From: a virus
Virus record (IMG/VR): IMGVR_UViG_3300045988_159959
Direction: 5' to 3' (one strand)
DNA length: 64,000 bases
In this document: positions 2,604-48,263 of the stretch, in pieces
Layout of the letters: each line of letters opens with the position of its first letter
How positions within the stretch are numbered: the first letter of the stretch is position 1
Notes under the pieces: generated by a model
What the model saw: the letters and a program-made list of their open reading frames with translations, nothing else
The model's database searches: none
What the model was told of the DNA's origin: nothing
Made by a program: the position numbers and the translations under genes

Positions 2604-2640
2604 GATTTGTTATTTTTATTGTTGTTACTTGATTGTGTTG

Positions 2641-23344: not shown

Positions 23345-23610
23345 TACTATTAGTTTTTAAAGACGAAAGGGCTAAGAACCGATTTTTACAGATTGTGTTC
23401 AAAGCCCTTTCTTGATTAACGTAATTAATTAACAACGAGATTGTTAATGTGCCTACTCTGTTAAGGATTTTCGGCATCCTCCTTTATTAAAAACTTTAGA
23501 TTTATATAGAGGAATATAGAATAGATTTTATTATTTCATGATCTCACCTCCTTTCTTTAATAGGGTTTGCAACTCGATTGACTATGTGAATAATTATACA
23601 GGAAAATCAG

Positions 23611-42210: not shown

Positions 42211-45101
42211 ACCCCAAGTTTTATGAATTTACTATTACTGTTTACTTGCAATACATATTCTTCTTTGAACTTGTCAAAGTTAGCCTTTCCGCTTAATAGG
42301 AGAAGGTTTTTCTTTGTGGACTGAAAGAACTCTGCGTTTTCCTCATAATCGTCCGGGAAAATGACTACACGAAGGAACTTGTAATTGCTTTCAAGCAAAA
42401 GATTGGCAAACCGTCCTTTCTTTCCTTCTCTTTCTTCCACTTCTAAAACGTAACCGCCTACCATAACCATTTCATAGGTTGATCCGTCATAGTTCTGCAA
42501 ATCTTCCACATTGTAGAAAACCCCATTTTTGACTTTTGGTTTTAAATATTCTCTTACCAGCTCTTCATAGTCGAAGAAAGCAAATCCGGACTTGTTCTTT
42601 TGCTGCAATAGCCACCACCAATCCTTACCAATCTTTTTCTTTTCAAAGGCAAGAAAATATTCATCCTTTTCTTTATCAATTTTGATCTTATTCTTTTCTC
42701 GGCACTTTCCAAGCATGAACTCCCTTGCAGAAAAGATATTGGAAAATTCCCTTGTTTCATCCATCATATCGAACGCACCAGAATAGATAAGATTTTCAAT
42801 AACGGATTTATTCACTGCCGATCCTTTGAACGTATGACGATCAATAAATTCAGCCAAAGAAAAATACTCCCCATTTTTAGAGCGTTCTTCCATAATCTGA
42901 TTCTGTGCCTTTTCTCCTACTTGTTTTGTTGCATTGATTGCCCAATAGATACTATTATCTTTTTTGTCAGCCACAATGTTTATATCAGACTTGTTGATAT
43001 TTACAGGTTTGATTTCGATCCCTTCTGTCTGCTGCATTTCATTGACGTATTGAGGAAAGTCATCTTCACTTGCACGGGACAGAGCAACCGACCAAAATTC
43101 CAAAGGATAATGCACTTTCAGCCATAAAGAATTGTAAGCATTAATAGCGTAACTTGCTGAATGACTGTTACATGTTATAATCCCTTGATCTGTACAATAA
43201 TTATGATTCGGATCATCTATTTCCACATCGTAAACATTTTCTATTTTATCCAGTTCAATACTTACTATTTTCGATAAAGCAGATGGATATCCTTTCTCAC
43301 CTCTTTTCATCCTGCCAAATTCACGATAATGAATTTTCTTGTGACAAGAAGGACAGATAGCAATAAGATTTTCATCTTCATTATTTCTCCTGTTCCCGTC
43401 TCTATGGTGAATTTCCAATCTGCCTTCTTTCCCACAATTTTTACAAACTCCAAATCCACCATTTTTCTCTCTGAAAGATCCAAACTTAGAAGATTCTCCA
43501 TTTGTTTTTACAAAACCCATGTGTCCTTTTTTAGAGTTTAAAGATTCCGGATTGTATTTACTCCAATTTTTACCCCTCATATCGGTAAAATTGTATCGCT
43601 GACTATCCGTTTTCTCATACGGCATTTGCACATACAGATTATCTTCTCCTACTCTCAAATCTTTGCACATAACTTTACCTCTTTGAGTAGGGAATTTATG
43701 GTTGTCTGTTACAGATACAAAACGACCGTCCTCTAAAGTTATTTTATAAGTTTGCCTTACCCCAGCAAACCTAATATCTTTAATTTTTCGATCTCTTATA
43801 CGTCCATCTTCACACATAGTAAGACAAGTTCCATAGCCAACTCTCAAATATTTACTCCTAAGAGGAGTCCAATTGTTTGCTTTTGCAAATGCAAGATCGT
43901 TCTTAATCAAATACATTTCTTCGATAGTAGGTTGTCTTTTGTTTTTGGGACAAGAGTTTCTTAAAATTCTGTAACTGCCTGATATACAGCGGTTAAAAGC
44001 ATACAAACCAAATTTTTCCATCTGTTTCCAGAGTGCTTCTGCGCTTTCTTTCGTTACCCCTTTTGAAGCAAATCTCTTTACATACCCATCCACAAATTTA
44101 GGATGAATTTTCTCTACTTTGTCCTTCTTTTTTTTTGCAATTGCAGCACGAGCAACATCTGCTTCTTCTTCCGAAAAACCAGCAAGAACTTGCACCATTT
44201 TAACGATCTGTTCTTGGTATACTTGCACAGAATAAGTATTTTTCAGAATTTCTTCCGCTCCAATAGGGTATTCCGGCTCTTTTTCTCCGTTTTTCAAAGC
44301 AATGTAGTCCATGTGAAAACCATTTTCCATTGGCCCGGGACGGAACAAGGAAAGTGCTGCCACTACATCATCCATGTTTTTAGGCTTCAATTTTTGAGTA
44401 TAAGCGCACAATCCTTTTGCTGAAAACTGAAATATATCGCTAAGCCAACCGTTTGCAAAATATCTGTAAACCTCTGGATCATCATATTCTATATCAGAAT
44501 AGAGATTGATTTTCCTACCCGTATTCTTTTCAATCAGATTCAGAATATCAGTGAATTTGTCCAATTGCTCAATACCAAGAATATCTTCTTTCAAAAAACC
44601 GGCTTCGTCCATTTCTCCACCTTCCCATTCACTGACAATTAAATCGCCTGATTTTCTAACCGGACACCACTCATACATTGTCTTTTCTTTTGGAAAGATC
44701 ATCATAGCACAAGCATGAATAGAAGCTGCCTTTTGTTGTCCAAGAAGAAGAAAAACAATATTCATCATTTCTGGATATTTATTCAGAAATTGATTTACTT
44801 CTGACTTCTTGCAAGCAAGTTTCAAAAAATCTTCTTCTGTCTTTACATCTTCTATCATTTTAGTAAGCCTCCTAAGAGTAGGAATTGAGACTCCATAGAG
44901 CTTTCCTACATCGTTTATAGCCTGTTTTATCTGTAAAGTGGTATATGTACCCACAGAACAAACTTGCGAAGCTCCAAAACGATTTTCCATATATTGTTTT
45001 ACTGCCGGTCGGTATTCTCCCGGCACATCTGTATCAATGTCTAACGCTCCCCCTTGTCCGAAAACAAGGGGGAAATTGATCGGGGAGCGATCCCGGTACA
45101 A
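42207..45101 (-). CDS. dnaE: DNA polymerase III alpha (DnaE-type), C-terminal fragment (palm catalytic Asp onward), containing an intein
   Basis: GGALDIDTDVPG..R..V..Y....FG...VCSVGTYTT aligns with DnaE PDFDVDF...YG...V..I.TFGT; later FN(R)|intein|SHSASYA. The track start is a TTG; homology begins near codon 18. There is no credible independent start. Confidence 0.85.
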   Translation of the reverse strand: MYRDRSPINFPLVFGQGGALDIDTDVPGEYRPAVKQYMENRFGASQVCSVGTYTTLQIKQAINDVGKLYGVSIPTLRRLTKMIEDVKTEEDFLKLACKKSEVNQFLNKYPEMMNIVFLLLGQQKAASIHACAMMIFPKEKTMYEWCPVRKSGDLIVSEWEGGEMDEAGFLKEDILGIEQLDKFTDILNLIEKNTGRKINLYSDIEYDDPEVYRYFANGWLSDIFQFSAKGLCAYTQKLKPKNMDDVVAALSLFRPGPMENGFHMDYIALKNGEKEPEYPIGAEEILKNTYSVQVYQEQIVKMVQVLAGFSEEEADVARAAIAKKKKDKVEKIHPKFVDGYVKRFASKGVTKESAEALWKQMEKFGLYAFNRCISGSYRILRNSCPKNKRQPTIEEMYLIKNDLAFAKANNWTPLRSKYLRVGYGTCLTMCEDGRIRDRKIKDIRFAGVRQTYKITLEDGRFVSVTDNHKFPTQRGKVMCKDLRVGEDNLYVQMPYEKTDSQRYNFTDMRGKNWSKYNPESLNSKKGHMGFVKTNGESSKFGSFREKNGGFGVCKNCGKEGRLEIHHRDGNRRNNEDENLIAICPSCHKKIHYREFGRMKRGEKGYPSALSKIVSIELDKIENVYDVEIDDPNHNYCTDQGIITCNSHSASYAINAYNSLWLKVHYPLEFWSVALSRASEDDFPQYVNEMQQTEGIEIKPVNINKSDINIVADKKDNSIYWAINATKQVGEKAQNQIMEERSKNGEYFSLAEFIDRHTFKGSAVNKSVIENLIYSGAFDMMDETREFSNIFSAREFMLGKCREKNKIKIDKEKDEYFLAFEKKKIGKDWWWLLQQKNKSGFAFFDYEELVREYLKPKVKNGVFYNVEDLQNYDGSTYEMVMVGGYVLEVEEREGKKGRFANLLLESNYKFLRVVIFPDDYEENAEFFQSTKKNLLLLSGKANFDKFKEEYVLQVNSNSKFIKLGV
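43167..43988 (-). mobile_element. 274-aa intein with an HNH endonuclease domain in DnaE
   Basis: Inserted between YAFNR and SHSASYA. Starts CISGSY. Block B is SVTDNHKF. HNH domain CKNCGKEGRLEIHHRDGNRRNN..NLIAICPSCHKKIH. Ends VYDVEIDD..GIITCN|S. Confidence 0.8.
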
Positions 45102-45109
45102 ATCGCTCC
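45049..45109 (-). other. two adjacent GC-rich hairpins at the downstream edge of the IscB insertion
   Basis: On the minus strand: GGAGCGAT-10 nt-ATCGCTCC (45109-45084), then CCCCCTTG-ttttcgga-CAAGGGGG (45072-45049). Perfect 8-bp stems in AT-rich DNA. Confidence 0.6.
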
Positions 45110-45170
45110 ACCTCTATTTCTTTAATTTTTTCTATTTTCATATACCAAAATATATTAAAATTAATAAAAA

Positions 45171-46400
45171 CTATTCATTTTCTTTAATACACATAGGATG
45201 TCTCTTCCCTCTGCATAATTTGATTTTCCTATACGAAGCATCTTTTGGATTATTCCCTTCGATATCCCGGATATTGAAACTACCTGTTTTTCTTCTACCA
45301 TATATAAACATTATTTTATTGTTATATAATACTTTATCAAATAAACGAAATCCAAAAACCTCAAATGGAGATTGATTCATACGTTTCAATCCTCCCTTCT
45401 GAATCTTTATTTTATGAATCTGGCGATTATGTCTTCTAATCAATTTTATCCTATAAAGGCAATTAATTCTATCAGCTTCGAAGTTCTTGGATATAATAAA
45501 AGCATCAGATGCATGAGATTTCTTTATGTTATGAATTATACGGTTGTGTTTCGTTACATAACCGTATGTCATGAATACGTTTGGATACAAACCTTTTAAA
45601 CAATCACACAACCTCCATCTCATTATCCCCATTACGGCAGCGTCGCGAAGCGACTTGCCTCTCCGTATCTTCAAGTCTATCTTACCTTTATGATAATCAT
45701 CATGACATGTCTCACATAAGGTTATTAAATTGGATGGAGAATCACCACCGGTTTTCCTTGATTCAATATGATGAACGTTAAGGACCTTGTTTTTTGACTT
45801 ACCCTTGCAATGACAGCATTTGTGACCATCACGGTATAAGACATATTCCCTTACGTTCCAAAAACCAAGTTGTTCTCCTTCTTGATATAATTTACCCTCT
45901 ATGTCAGGATTCTTGATCTTTTGTGTATCAAATTGAGCTACTTCAATAACGAGGCGAGTAATTGGCAAAATAGAATACACATTTTGAATAACGCGAATAT
46001 GAGCGTCTATCTTGTTCTGCACCGAAGGTGCTAACCATCCTTCACGTTTTGATTTTATCCTATTATCAAAACGAGGTTTTCTATACCTCAATCTTGACCG
46101 CCTTGTCCGTCTTAGCTCTCTCCTTGTAGACAAAAGATCTACCATATCACTTCTCAGAGTCACTTCACTCGCATAAAGCTCTTTGCTTTTCGTCGTTGCT
46201 GACAAACCAACATGTTTGGTTCCGGCATCAACGCCTAACGTAATTTCTTGTTTGTAACTATCGGATATGTACGTCAATCGGATGGTAAACGGACATAGGT
46301 TTACAACGACCGCCTGTTTTGTTTTAAGCAGTCTCCTAACCTTTCCATGCCTTGTTGTTGGCATAAGCGGTTTACCTTCTATGTTCTGTACATACACCAT
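45171..46400 (-). CDS. iscB: IscB RNA-guided nuclease (PLMP, split RuvC, bridge helix, HNH)
   Basis: EGKPLMPTTRHGKVRRLL (PLMP domain); LGVDAGTKHVG (RuvC-I); RRELRRTRRSRLRYRKPRFDNR (Arg-rich bridge helix); LVIEVAQFD (RuvC-II); CCHCKG..NVHHI..NLITLCETCHDDYH (HNH); SHASDAFII (RuvC-III); C-terminal FRLFDKV..GRRKTGSF. Confidence 0.9.
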   Translation of the reverse strand: MVYVQNIEGKPLMPTTRHGKVRRLLKTKQAVVVNLCPFTIRLTYISDSYKQEITLGVDAGTKHVGLSATTKSKELYASEVTLRSDMVDLLSTRRELRRTRRSRLRYRKPRFDNRIKSKREGWLAPSVQNKIDAHIRVIQNVYSILPITRLVIEVAQFDTQKIKNPDIEGKLYQEGEQLGFWNVREYVLYRDGHKCCHCKGKSKNKVLNVHHIESRKTGGDSPSNLITLCETCHDDYHKGKIDLKIRRGKSLRDAAVMGIMRWRLCDCLKGLYPNVFMTYGYVTKHNRIIHNIKKSHASDAFIISKNFEADRINCLYRIKLIRRHNRQIHKIKIQKGGLKRMNQSPFEVFGFRLFDKVLYNNKIMFIYGRRKTGSFNIRDIEGNNPKDASYRKIKLCRGKRHPMCIKENE

Positions 46401-46709
46401 TATTCACAAACAACATAATGTTTATTCAACATAAGTCAGGATAAAAATCCTGTTAGTACCCATCGCCAATGTTATCAAAGGTTTGTTGTAAGCAACACTG
46501 TTTCCCAAATACAAAAACTGTTTAATCACTTACCTTAGAACTACAGACTTGGGCAAATATCCGTAGGTAACTATCTATTCTTTAATAACGTAGTTCTTGT
46601 TTCAGAACTTAGGCTAATAACCAGATCCGATTTTACGGATGTATTAAAATGGGATAATGATTTTATCTGATTTTAATACTATTTGCGGTTATATTCTTGT
46701 TACTTGATA
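46401..46709 (-). ncRNA. candidate IscB omega RNA (HEARO-type) or other structured RNA upstream of iscB
   Basis: 309 nt without an ORF, directly 5' of iscB, where IscB guide RNAs are encoded. Minus-strand hairpins: ATCCG-taaaat-CGGAT, GTTCT-gaaaca-AGAAC, CAGGAT-tttt-ATCCTG. It may extend 5' to about 46829. Confidence 0.5.
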
Positions 46710-48263
46710 TTAGACTAAAATGTCATCTCCTACTTTCAACGCTTTAGTTGTTATATTGATAGGAAGGATTTTCTTTTTCCCGTCTGCAAGAGTTACCTCA
46801 TACATCTTTTTCTTTTCAAAATGTCCTAATCGTCCTCTTGTCAAAAATCTTTCAAAAAGTAAGTTAAACTTCAAAGGATGTGTATTTATGATACCAAAAA
46901 GATAAGAAATTAAAGAACCGCTTGCACTTCCGCGACCCGCACCTAACAAAATGTTATTCTTTTTACACCAATTGACAATATCACGCAAAATCAAAAAGTA
47001 ATCCACAACATCACCAAACTTAATAATCTTAGATTCTCTTTCGATCCTTTCCACAAGCACATCTTCCGAGTAATCTTCCAAAAGTTCCGGTTTGTTCTCC
47101 AACCCTTCATAAATCAAAGAATCAAACATATCTTCATTGGAAGTGTATTTTTTCTTTTCTTCTTTTGTCATTTCATAACGGGGAAGATGTCGACTGTCAG
47201 TAGGAATTTCAAAGTTGCAATTTTCCGCAATCATATCAGCGTTAGTCCTTGCTACCATATAAAATTCCTCCCCTCTTTCACTATCCCCGAACAAAGAAAG
47301 AAGTTCTTCCATGTAAGTCGCTTCATCTTTGAAATACTGATTGCCGGATTTGTAGTTTACTTTCCCGTCAATCTTATTTACGACTTCCCGAAGTATGGCA
47401 TATTCCGGCTCAATATAATAAGCATCACAAATAGCTACGGGCTTCATTTTGGACTTATAGAACTGTTCAAAGTTCATCAAATAGAAGGTATCCCTATCGT
47501 TCTTTGTGTATTTCACGGTATCTACTTGCCAAAACACATTGGGTTTGTTTCTCAAAAGGATAGGAACATCTTCAAGCTGTATTGTTTTTGGATCGAATAC
47601 AATGTACACATCTGAAACATGTTCCGACATGTCTTTTGGAGAAACGAATTTTCCATTATCACCACAGTTCAAAATCTTGTTTAATGCAAGCAAATGCTGC
47701 CAGCCCTTTTCATTCTTTGCATAGACTTTGTAAGTATAGACAATATCCTTCTTTTCATCCTTTACCGGGACTTCCAGACCAAACACAGGGATGATTCCTT
47801 CTGCCTTGCAAGCGTTTTGAAATTTGAGCGCACCTGCCAAAGTTGCTTTTTCAACAATCCCCAATCTTTCTATTCCTAAGAATTTGGCTTTCTTTACCCA
47901 ATCCGGGTACAATCCCGTACCATTCAAAAGTTCAAACGATCCATGTACTCCCAAAAAATTAGTGGAAAGACCTGCCATTTCACTTTGTCCTCTCCATTTT
48001 ACCCGGTTAAGTTTAGGCTCGTTTTCCTTCCCTTTGTCCAATGTGTACCATACACCACCAAGACGAAAGATGTAACCATCTTCTTCGGTGCGTTCACAAT
48101 CCCAACGAAAATCCTCTGAAAAGAAATATCCATCTTCGTTAGGCTCAAAAACTTCGTATGATTTTCCCTCAAAGAAAACAGTGTAATTTTCTTTGTCGAG
48201 AGAGTATTGTATGGTATTGGAAGAAAGGTATTCTTCCAACTCATTTAAAAGTCGATCCATCAT
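46710..48263 (-). CDS. dnaE: DNA polymerase III alpha (DnaE-type), N-terminal fragment (PHP domain to LFERFL), with a 39-codon read-through tail
   Basis: PHP-like LGVHGSFELLNG..AKFLGIERLGIVEK..GIIPVFGLEV; later GAGRGSASGSLISYLFGII..HPLKFNLLFERFLTRGR, then non-homologous LGHFEKKKMYEVTLADGKKKILPINITTKALKVGDDILV-stop. Confidence 0.85.
   Translation of the reverse strand: MMDRLLNELEEYLSSNTIQYSLDKENYTVFFEGKSYEVFEPNEDGYFFSEDFRWDCERTEEDGYIFRLGGVWYTLDKGKENEPKLNRVKWRGQSEMAGLSTNFLGVHGSFELLNGTGLYPDWVKKAKFLGIERLGIVEKATLAGALKFQNACKAEGIIPVFGLEVPVKDEKKDIVYTYKVYAKNEKGWQHLLALNKILNCGDNGKFVSPKDMSEHVSDVYIVFDPKTIQLEDVPILLRNKPNVFWQVDTVKYTKNDRDTFYLMNFEQFYKSKMKPVAICDAYYIEPEYAILREVVNKIDGKVNYKSGNQYFKDEATYMEELLSLFGDSERGEEFYMVARTNADMIAENCNFEIPTDSRHLPRYEMTKEEKKKYTSNEDMFDSLIYEGLENKPELLEDYSEDVLVERIERESKIIKFGDVVDYFLILRDIVNWCKKNNILLGAGRGSASGSLISYLFGIINTHPLKFNLLFERFLTRGRLGHFEKKKMYEVTLADGKKKILPINITTKALKVGDDILV

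Follow-up and report, generated by a model that had tools for sequence, protein, structure and literature searches.

The window analysed here is a 64,000-nt stretch of viral DNA (IMG/VR record IMGVR_UViG_3300045988_159959), on the minus strand of which the polymerase gene dnaE is divided into two open reading frames (ORFs) with an iscB gene lying between them. The interval of interest, 46401..46709, coincides exactly with the gap that separates the stop codon of the N-terminal dnaE ORF (ORF1) from the ATG of iscB. ORF1 contains a PHP domain and, of the Pol III alpha catalytic domain, the first ~98 profile positions. The minus strand of the gap contains no ORF of at least 40 aa, and a 55-aa plus-strand ORF (46267..46434) overlaps its edge. 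The first-pass annotation had described this interval as the only sizeable non-coding gap; the description holds across ~55.9-35.1 kb, where no other gap longer than 120 nt separates long minus-strand ORFs, but not for the whole window. The coordinates of all features are collected in Table 1.

Table 1. Features of the split dnaE locus and its IscB insertion, in window coordinates.
Feature	Position	Strand	Basis or remark
N-terminal dnaE ORF (ORF1), 517 aa	48263..46710	-	ends at the gap
ORF1 C-terminal extension, LGHFEKKK...GDDILV plus stop	46710..46829	-	part of the 219-nt cassette; found in 24 cargo-less alleles, lacking in 40 intact ones
Guide, 16 nt, ATCAAGTAACAAGAAT (5'-AUCAAGUAACAAGAAU-3')	46708..46693	-	adjoins 5' side of P1; flank DNA
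Whole IscB-omega insertion, 1551 nt	46692..45142	-	occupied versus empty sites
Omega-RNA scaffold, ~275 nt	46692..~46418	-	covariation, Rfam
P1, AUAACCG/UGGUUAU	46692-46686 with 46623-46617	-	covariation, MFE
Enlarged hairpin, 39 nt	46679-46641	-	covariation
Hairpin b, ATCCG/CGGAT	46640..46625	-	covariation
Central domain (Rfam HEARO match)	46661-46452	-	
Hairpin GTTCT/AGAAC	~46607..46592	-	covariation
Two covarying 3' hairpins, 3' of the Rfam match	46452-46437 and 46432-46418	-	
First of these two hairpins, CAGGAT/ATCCTG	46452..46437	-	covariation
iscB ORF, 409 aa	46400..45171	-	PLMP/RRXRR N-terminus, split RuvC, HNH, C-terminal region
Element tail after iscB stop, 29 nt	45142..45170	-	left end in transposase orientation; occupied versus empty sites
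Target-adjacent motif ATGAAA (TTCAT on plus strand)	45136..45141	-	flank; doubles as dnaE ORF2 start codon
ORF2 N-terminal tail, 17 aa	45091..45141	-	
ORF2 start, MKIEKIKEIEVERFVPG then native SLPD	45079..45141	-	stem-loop 45109-45084; ends at candidate take-off codon GAT (45081-45079)
Non-triplet coding gap, 40 nt, between SLPD and IDTDV	45039..45078	-	hairpin CCCCCUUGU/ACAAGGGGG; ends in candidate landing codon GAC

The iscB product contains the Pfam domains RRXRR (PF14239, 1.7e-58) and HNH (PF01844), and its comparison with the OgeuIscB structures (PDB 7utn and 7xht) gives an E-value of 2e-39. The motifs GVDAG, IEVAQ, VHHIE and HASDAF start at residues 56, 152, 209 and 296, placing the catalytic residues at D58, E153, H210/H211, H296 and D299; the last three motifs, which cover the HNH, RuvC-II and RuvC-III regions, align to equivalent residues of OgeuIscB. 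The ORF is intact, with both the RuvC and the HNH catalytic motifs present. A sibling phage has another IscB element, distinct from this one and with 65% identity across the available part (L008:1..470, corresponding to ~51010 of the window), just upstream of a primase-like gene, where the window has no insertion.

The RNA encoded in the gap

The gap encodes the IscB omega (HEARO) RNA. The Rfam HEARO model (RF02033) matches 46661..46452 on the minus strand with 97.9 bits against a gathering score of 83, and the match covers model positions 1-211 of 211; the HEARO family now goes by the name of IscB omega RNA. HEARO was found at the same position upstream of iscB in all five relatives fetched via protein or DNA similarity, and in the window the RNA ends ~17 nt before the iscB ATG (46400) on the same strand. 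By MFE folding, the 294-nt RNA is more stable than shuffled sequence (z = -3.3), being equalled by one of 200 shuffles.

Homologues of the RNA were collected with a conserved 17-mer, which led to more than 120 phage contigs and 104 distinct homologues. A 30-sequence alignment threaded on a revised structure has 94.9% of its cells paired, and 32 of the 67 pairs show compensatory change; none of 500 shuffles scored as high, and slid controls reached 38-45% paired. The omega RNA proposed from the sequence in the first-pass annotation is confirmed by the full-length match above the gathering score together with this strong covariation. The three minus-strand hairpins named there (ATCCG/CGGAT, GTTCT/AGAAC and CAGGAT/ATCCTG) are all present, and each is a covariation-supported RNA helix.

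The revision of the structure concerns its 5' end. Independent insertions that share the 5' architecture of the window become homologous at AUA(A/U)(C/U)C, which lies 31 nt upstream of Rfam model position 1, and their sequences upstream of this start are unrelated. The heptamer at the start, the 5' side of P1, pairs and covaries with a strand just 5' of UAGCC; besides the window pair (Table 1), the combinations AUAAUCA/UGAUUAU, AUAUCCG/CGGAUAU, AUAACCC/GGGUUAU and AUAGCCC/GGGUUAU are found. In a 22-sequence alignment of the 5' domain made without the window, P1 is 99.3% paired, with CG, UA and AU interchanging, and a covariance model of this domain, also built without the window, matches 46698..46607 with 88.7 bits (E 3e-15). 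The window RNA retains 100% of the paired architecture of the family, and single-sequence MFE folding recovers the same P1. Judged by this covariation, Rfam mis-threads the 5' end and the scaffold begins at 46692.

The position of the 5' end decides where the guide is sought. Rfam sets model position 1 at 46661, on which count the guide would be the 16 nt 5' of the Rfam match (46677..46662), internal to the RNA and fixed rather than flank-derived. This placement is rejected because the P1 threaded by Rfam has only 42% of its cells paired and zero compensatory change, against 99% for the upstream P1. Positions 46679-46670, moreover, form the 5' arm of a covarying hairpin that is conserved between independent insertions, and an internal guide is hardly credible.

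The first-pass annotation had left the choice between an omega RNA and an intron core. On the latter reading, a group I (or II) intron would splice dnaE, with IscB as its homing endonuclease in the manner of an IStron, and a spliced junction from GGACGA to ATTGATACA would be expected. The insertion does interrupt an essential gene at a highly conserved catalytic motif, a typical intron site, and the downstream dnaE part is closely preceded by two strong GC hairpins; IStrons, in which an intron is joined to TnpB, are also known (PMC10690162). However, no Rfam covariance model other than HEARO, introns included, matches 44700-47100 at E<=10; neither a group I nor a group II model does so in the cargo-free allele L009:4540-4920, and none reaches its gathering score in ten cargo-free relatives. 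HEARO and its flanking hairpins fill nearly all of the 309 nt, and the GC hairpins are also present in alleles with other cargo or none. On either side of the IscB element, the sequence shows the signs of protein evolution: its changes are mostly synonymous, and it includes a stop codon and a distinct ORF with its own ATG. An intron core in this interval is thus very unlikely.

Other structured RNAs were met in the course of the analysis. A homologue of the omega RNA at L006:2420..2661 (MT838317.1), found also in L130, has a 5' hairpin loop, TAAAATCGATAAAAA, close to that of the window, TAAAATCAGATAAAA; the 5.4-kb L006 record yielded no IscB match along its whole length, and its omega RNA appears to be an orphan. 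Elsewhere in the window, at 23450..23484 on the minus strand, lies a full-length Rfam DUF805b RNA (RF02914; 53.6 bits against a gathering score of 35.6).

Element boundaries, guide and target

The extent of the element follows from the comparison of occupied with empty sites. The empty site in sibling phages reads TAATATCAAGTAACAAGAAT/ATGAAAATAG, that is, CAAGAAT/ATGAAA, where the slash marks the insertion point, and the cargo-less cassette sequence is GTCTAATATCAAGTAACAAGAAT/ATGAAAATAG. In the window, the junctions are CAAGAAT/ATAACCGC on one side and TTTTGGTAT/ATGAAAATAG on the other, with no target duplication and with an ambiguity of the junction within a shared ATAT. The boundary near 46829 that had been suggested from the sequence is the edge of a different, older cassette of 219 nt; the element itself starts at 46692. 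It consists of the omega RNA and iscB alone, no Y1 transposase TnpA being found within its 1551 nt, and its neighbours are the two dnaE halves. The omega-RNA end is highly structured. The iscB-distal end has no convincing subterminal hairpin; inspection by eye finds a weak AT palindrome alone, TATTAA..TTAATA.

The 16 nt 5' of P1 are flank sequence and are therefore taken as the guide. They coincide with 16 of the 19 nt of the spacer between the ORF1 stop and the ORF2 start, and the guide is thus inter-ORF spacer of the 219-nt cassette and not dnaE exon sequence as originally supposed. In the empty site, the guide match is followed by ATGAAA; with the element in place, the guide DNA runs into ATAAC instead, in which two of the five motif positions deviate from ATGAA. 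A second, independent insertion (L155 type) has 106 empty sites that read GAGTTTAAGGA(C/T)/ATGAAAGCC, the first part ending in GGA(C/T); its occupied copies start with ATAATC, and the ATGAA motif follows the guide match in their empty sites. A search for a third empty site, that of the L001-type element, found none, and the ATGAA motif is based on two empty sites and on analogy with ISGst5.

A query with the N-terminal DnaE fragment retrieved 79 related phage contigs of ~100 kb each, among which dnaE is intact in 40, carries a cargo-less 219-nt cassette in 24 and holds a cassette with cargo in a few. The guide is matched at all 16 positions, followed by ATG(A/G)AA, in 11 of the 24 cargo-less cassettes; three others have one mismatch, and ten have a diverged spacer. 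Perfectly matching empty alleles thus occur in the closest relatives, which have 96-98% DnaE identity. The 40 intact alleles mismatch the guide at 9-12 of 16 positions, which speaks against the earlier proposal that uninterrupted dnaE is targeted.

Several sequence variants touch on the guide and its target. The only other near match in the window, 2633..2618 on the minus strand (15/16, ATCAAGTAACAACAAT), has no ATGAA motif and is not a predicted target; it belongs to an intergenic leader, precedes an ATG by 15 nt and may reflect a shared leader motif in this phage. Among the relatives, L010 (~4741) has ATGGAA in place of ATGAAA, and ten contigs (among L017-L025, L028 and L030) have the diverged spacer TAGATAGAACAGAAAAT. 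These alleles may be escape variants or may represent plain lineage divergence.

With a probability that we put at roughly 0.85, the gap is the omega RNA of a 1551-nt IS200/IS605-type IscB element, which has a 16-nt flank-derived guide and an ATGAA-adjacent site in the dnaE spacer, homing or retention being its likely role. Expression, cleavage and homing are what we infer from sequence, and the mechanism may be pictured as follows. The omega RNA would be made probably by read-through of the dnaE operon; a scan for sigma-70-like promoters gave a site count equal to chance, with no site upstream of the omega RNA. The RNA scaffold may substitute for the REC lobe that is missing from the 409-aa IscB, and the complex would recognise the guide match together with ATGAA, a combination expected only in cassette alleles that do not hold the element. 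Cleavage of such an empty allele, followed by recombination with an occupied genome, would copy the element in, and the outcome could be homing between co-infecting phages or restoration after excision. The first arrival of the element presumably needed a host TnpA acting in trans. The idea of homing or retention, put forward in the first-pass annotation, is in this form kept as a likely interpretation, but its target has shifted from uninterrupted dnaE to the cargo-less cassette.

The distribution of the element bears on its role. The exact IscB occurs in two other assemblies, both 100% identical over the region, and thus in one strain only; a search for the insertion junction gave no match in IMG/VR and four chance matches in JGI contigs. 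With the insertion known from one strain, its spread by homing is putative. The same rarity, in the face of common targets, would suit IscB and its omega RNA being mainly a weapon against related co-infecting phages at the dnaE cassette, with copying incidental. The guide matches sibling phage genomes perfectly, and endonuclease-mediated competition between co-infecting phages is documented (cited in PMC13565253). The molecular act, however, is the same as in homing, so that sequence alone cannot separate the two, and phage recombination would normally convert the cut allele from the donor template; a role chiefly as a weapon is considered unlikely. Alternatively, the element could be an inert relic with no function in the phage, intact-looking because its insertion is recent. 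A single known carrier strain, no promoter found and no transposase nearby are in keeping with such a relic, but the ORF is full length with all catalytic motifs, the RNA keeps the complete paired architecture of its family, and more than 100 phage contigs keep both parts under compensatory evolution. We regard inertness as improbable.

The dnaE cassette and a candidate translational bypass

The 219-nt cassette predates the IscB element, from which it is independent, and it is the cassette that splits dnaE into two ORFs. Intact dnaE reads FERFL-KGR-VKVSLP-DVDTDV. The cassette adds to it a 39-aa ORF1 tail with a stop codon, the 19-nt spacer, a 17-aa tail that opens with a new ATG and leads into the native SLPD, and a 40-nt insert. 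Substitutions in the ORF1 extension relative to L005 are mainly synonymous, and the ORF2 extension is homologous to the contiguous MITIKTIKKEVVESTKLGSLPDIDTDF of L074, which has the split and the tails and lacks both the spacer and the gap. The spacer slot is used by other cargo in related phages: in the siblings L005 and L029, it holds a 290-aa ORF that falls in PHROG 'homing endonuclease' families, and in the distant relatives L076-80 an ORF resembling endonuclease VII/HNH (PHROGs). A Pfam search of these alternative cargo ORFs gave no match. The nearest cultured relatives of the phage infect Bacteroidota.

A split intein was considered as the origin of the two tails and rejected. The ORF1 tail starts with LGHF or FEKK and has no N-terminal Cys or Ser, the C tail ends in VPG before SLPD with no C-terminal Asn, and the tails measure just 39 and 17 aa; protein splicing is not expected.

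The 40-nt insert lies early in ORF2 and is not a multiple of three. The codon before it is GAT in all sequences and the last codon within it is GAC or GAT, so that the putative take-off and landing codons both specify Asp. The take-off codon is followed by TAA in 13 contigs and by CAA in the rest. A stem-loop lies 5' of the gap, and a 9-bp GC hairpin lies within it (fold z = -4.6). The gap measures 39 nt in L023/L024, a length still compatible with bypass because a hop is frame-independent, and in distant relatives this position is taken by other short inserts (3, 5 and 24 nt) with a stop codon. A start of the C-terminal DnaE part at the in-frame TTG (45101) was also considered and found unlikely: changes that are synonymous in the ATG frame are non-synonymous in the TTG frame, and the latter is broken by a 1-nt deletion in L023/L024. 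The ORF2 gap is accordingly presented as a candidate that resembles the translational bypass of T4 gene 60, a lead and not a demonstration. In the literature consulted, gene-60-type bypassing has been described in topoisomerase genes only.

Mobile elements have landed repeatedly in the dnaE gene of this phage group. The C-terminal dnaE ORF of the window holds a classical intein of 274 aa with an HNH endonuclease domain (43167..43988, minus strand; CISGS...ITCN followed by SHS) at a site between FN(K/R) and SH, and the sibling MT835601 (L005) has a shorter intein, which lacks the HNH domain, at the same site. In L068 (2106..3209) and L069 (4522..5625), a further insertion of ~1.1 kb interrupts the N-terminal dnaE ORF at a point corresponding to residue 174 of the query segment.

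Comparison with known systems

The omega RNA itself is of the textbook kind; what is new is the corrected 5' boundary, the guide, the motif and the natural setting. As in the OgeuIscB-omega RNA complexes (7utn, 7xht), the RNA lies 5' of iscB and combines a multi-helix scaffold with a 5' guide, whereas the IscB of the window is shorter than OgeuIscB (409 versus 496 aa). Compared with the Rfam HEARO family, the window RNA belongs to an AT-rich phage subfamily in which P1 lies 31 nt upstream of the Rfam threading, the first internal hairpin is larger, at 39 nt, and the 3' end has two additional hairpins. The corrected 5' architecture applies to a large, phage-borne subfamily of such AT-rich omega RNAs and matters for the prediction of guides from Rfam coordinates.

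The closest parallel in element architecture is ISGst5 of Geobacillus stearothermophilus (Meers et al., PMC10055086), in which the right end delimits the omega RNA and its flank supplies the guide, the TAM of IscB is TTCAT and lies directly at the left end, and the self site departs from the TAM in two positions, which provides a margin of self-avoidance. According to the same source, IscB elements are mostly non-autonomous (PMC10055086). On the opposite strand, the window element shows the ISGst5 order of TTCAT, left end, iscB, omega RNA, right end and guide complement. TTCAT is the reverse complement of ATGAA, the empty (donor-joint) site is the target in both systems, and the two-position difference of the self site is likewise shared. 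Unlike ISGst5, the window element resides in a phage genome, with no TnpA found in or beside it, and its matching empty sites are found in other phages instead of a sister chromosome. The occupied and empty phages thus provide a natural comparison in which the guide-plus-TAM logic of IS605 elements plays out on sibling phages.

Viral IscB/HEARO loci as such are already documented, more than 16% of HEARO-encoding fragments being viral or prophage-derived (PMC9755519). OMEGA homing between phages, termed 'non-restorative homing', is treated as theoretical in a 2026 review (PMC13565253), and the situation at the window locus corresponds to it. The presence of an RNA-guided nuclease where relatives hold protein-only homing endonucleases exemplifies competition or replacement between kinds of selfish nuclease.

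Two further systems share the placement of a nuclease within a divided host gene. IStrons, which unite a group I intron with an IS605/IS607 TnpB, resemble the locus in having an OMEGA-type nuclease inside an intervening sequence of a host gene, but no intron is detectable at this locus, which pairs IscB with a 5' omega RNA where IStrons pair TnpB with a 3' omega RNA. In the fractured genes with split inteins (Dassa et al. 2009, PMC2677866), an endonuclease gene likewise stands between two ORFs that encode one enzyme, and the dnaE ORF1 tail is similar to the opening strands of a Hint domain; the dnaE tails differ in their short length and in lacking the terminal Cys/Ser and Asn residues noted above.

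The dnaE cassette finds its nearest counterpart in MobA/gene 60 of T4-like phages, where a split gene with conserved tails, a lost or swapped endonuclease and a bypass cassette have been described (Manning & Atkins, bioRxiv 10.1101/2022.08.31.505936). We tentatively suggest, as a possibility that the present evidence leaves rather doubtful, that IscB-omega took over the endonuclease slot of a gene-60/MobA-like cassette in dnaE, that it homes by means of the guide drawn from the 19-nt spacer, and that ORF2 would need a 40-nt hop from GAU to GAC. If true, the hop in dnaE would for the first time extend gene-60-style bypass beyond topoisomerase genes, and the candidate concerns an essential polymerase gene. 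In dnaE and gene 60 alike, the split of an essential gene falls at a metal-binding motif, both halves carry tails, a free-standing endonuclease lies between the halves, and a short non-triplet gap occurs early in the second ORF. The two are likened by these features, and they differ in that the divided gene of the window is dnaE and not a topoisomerase gene, the gap is 40 nt long and bordered by Asp codons, and the cargo is RNA-guided.
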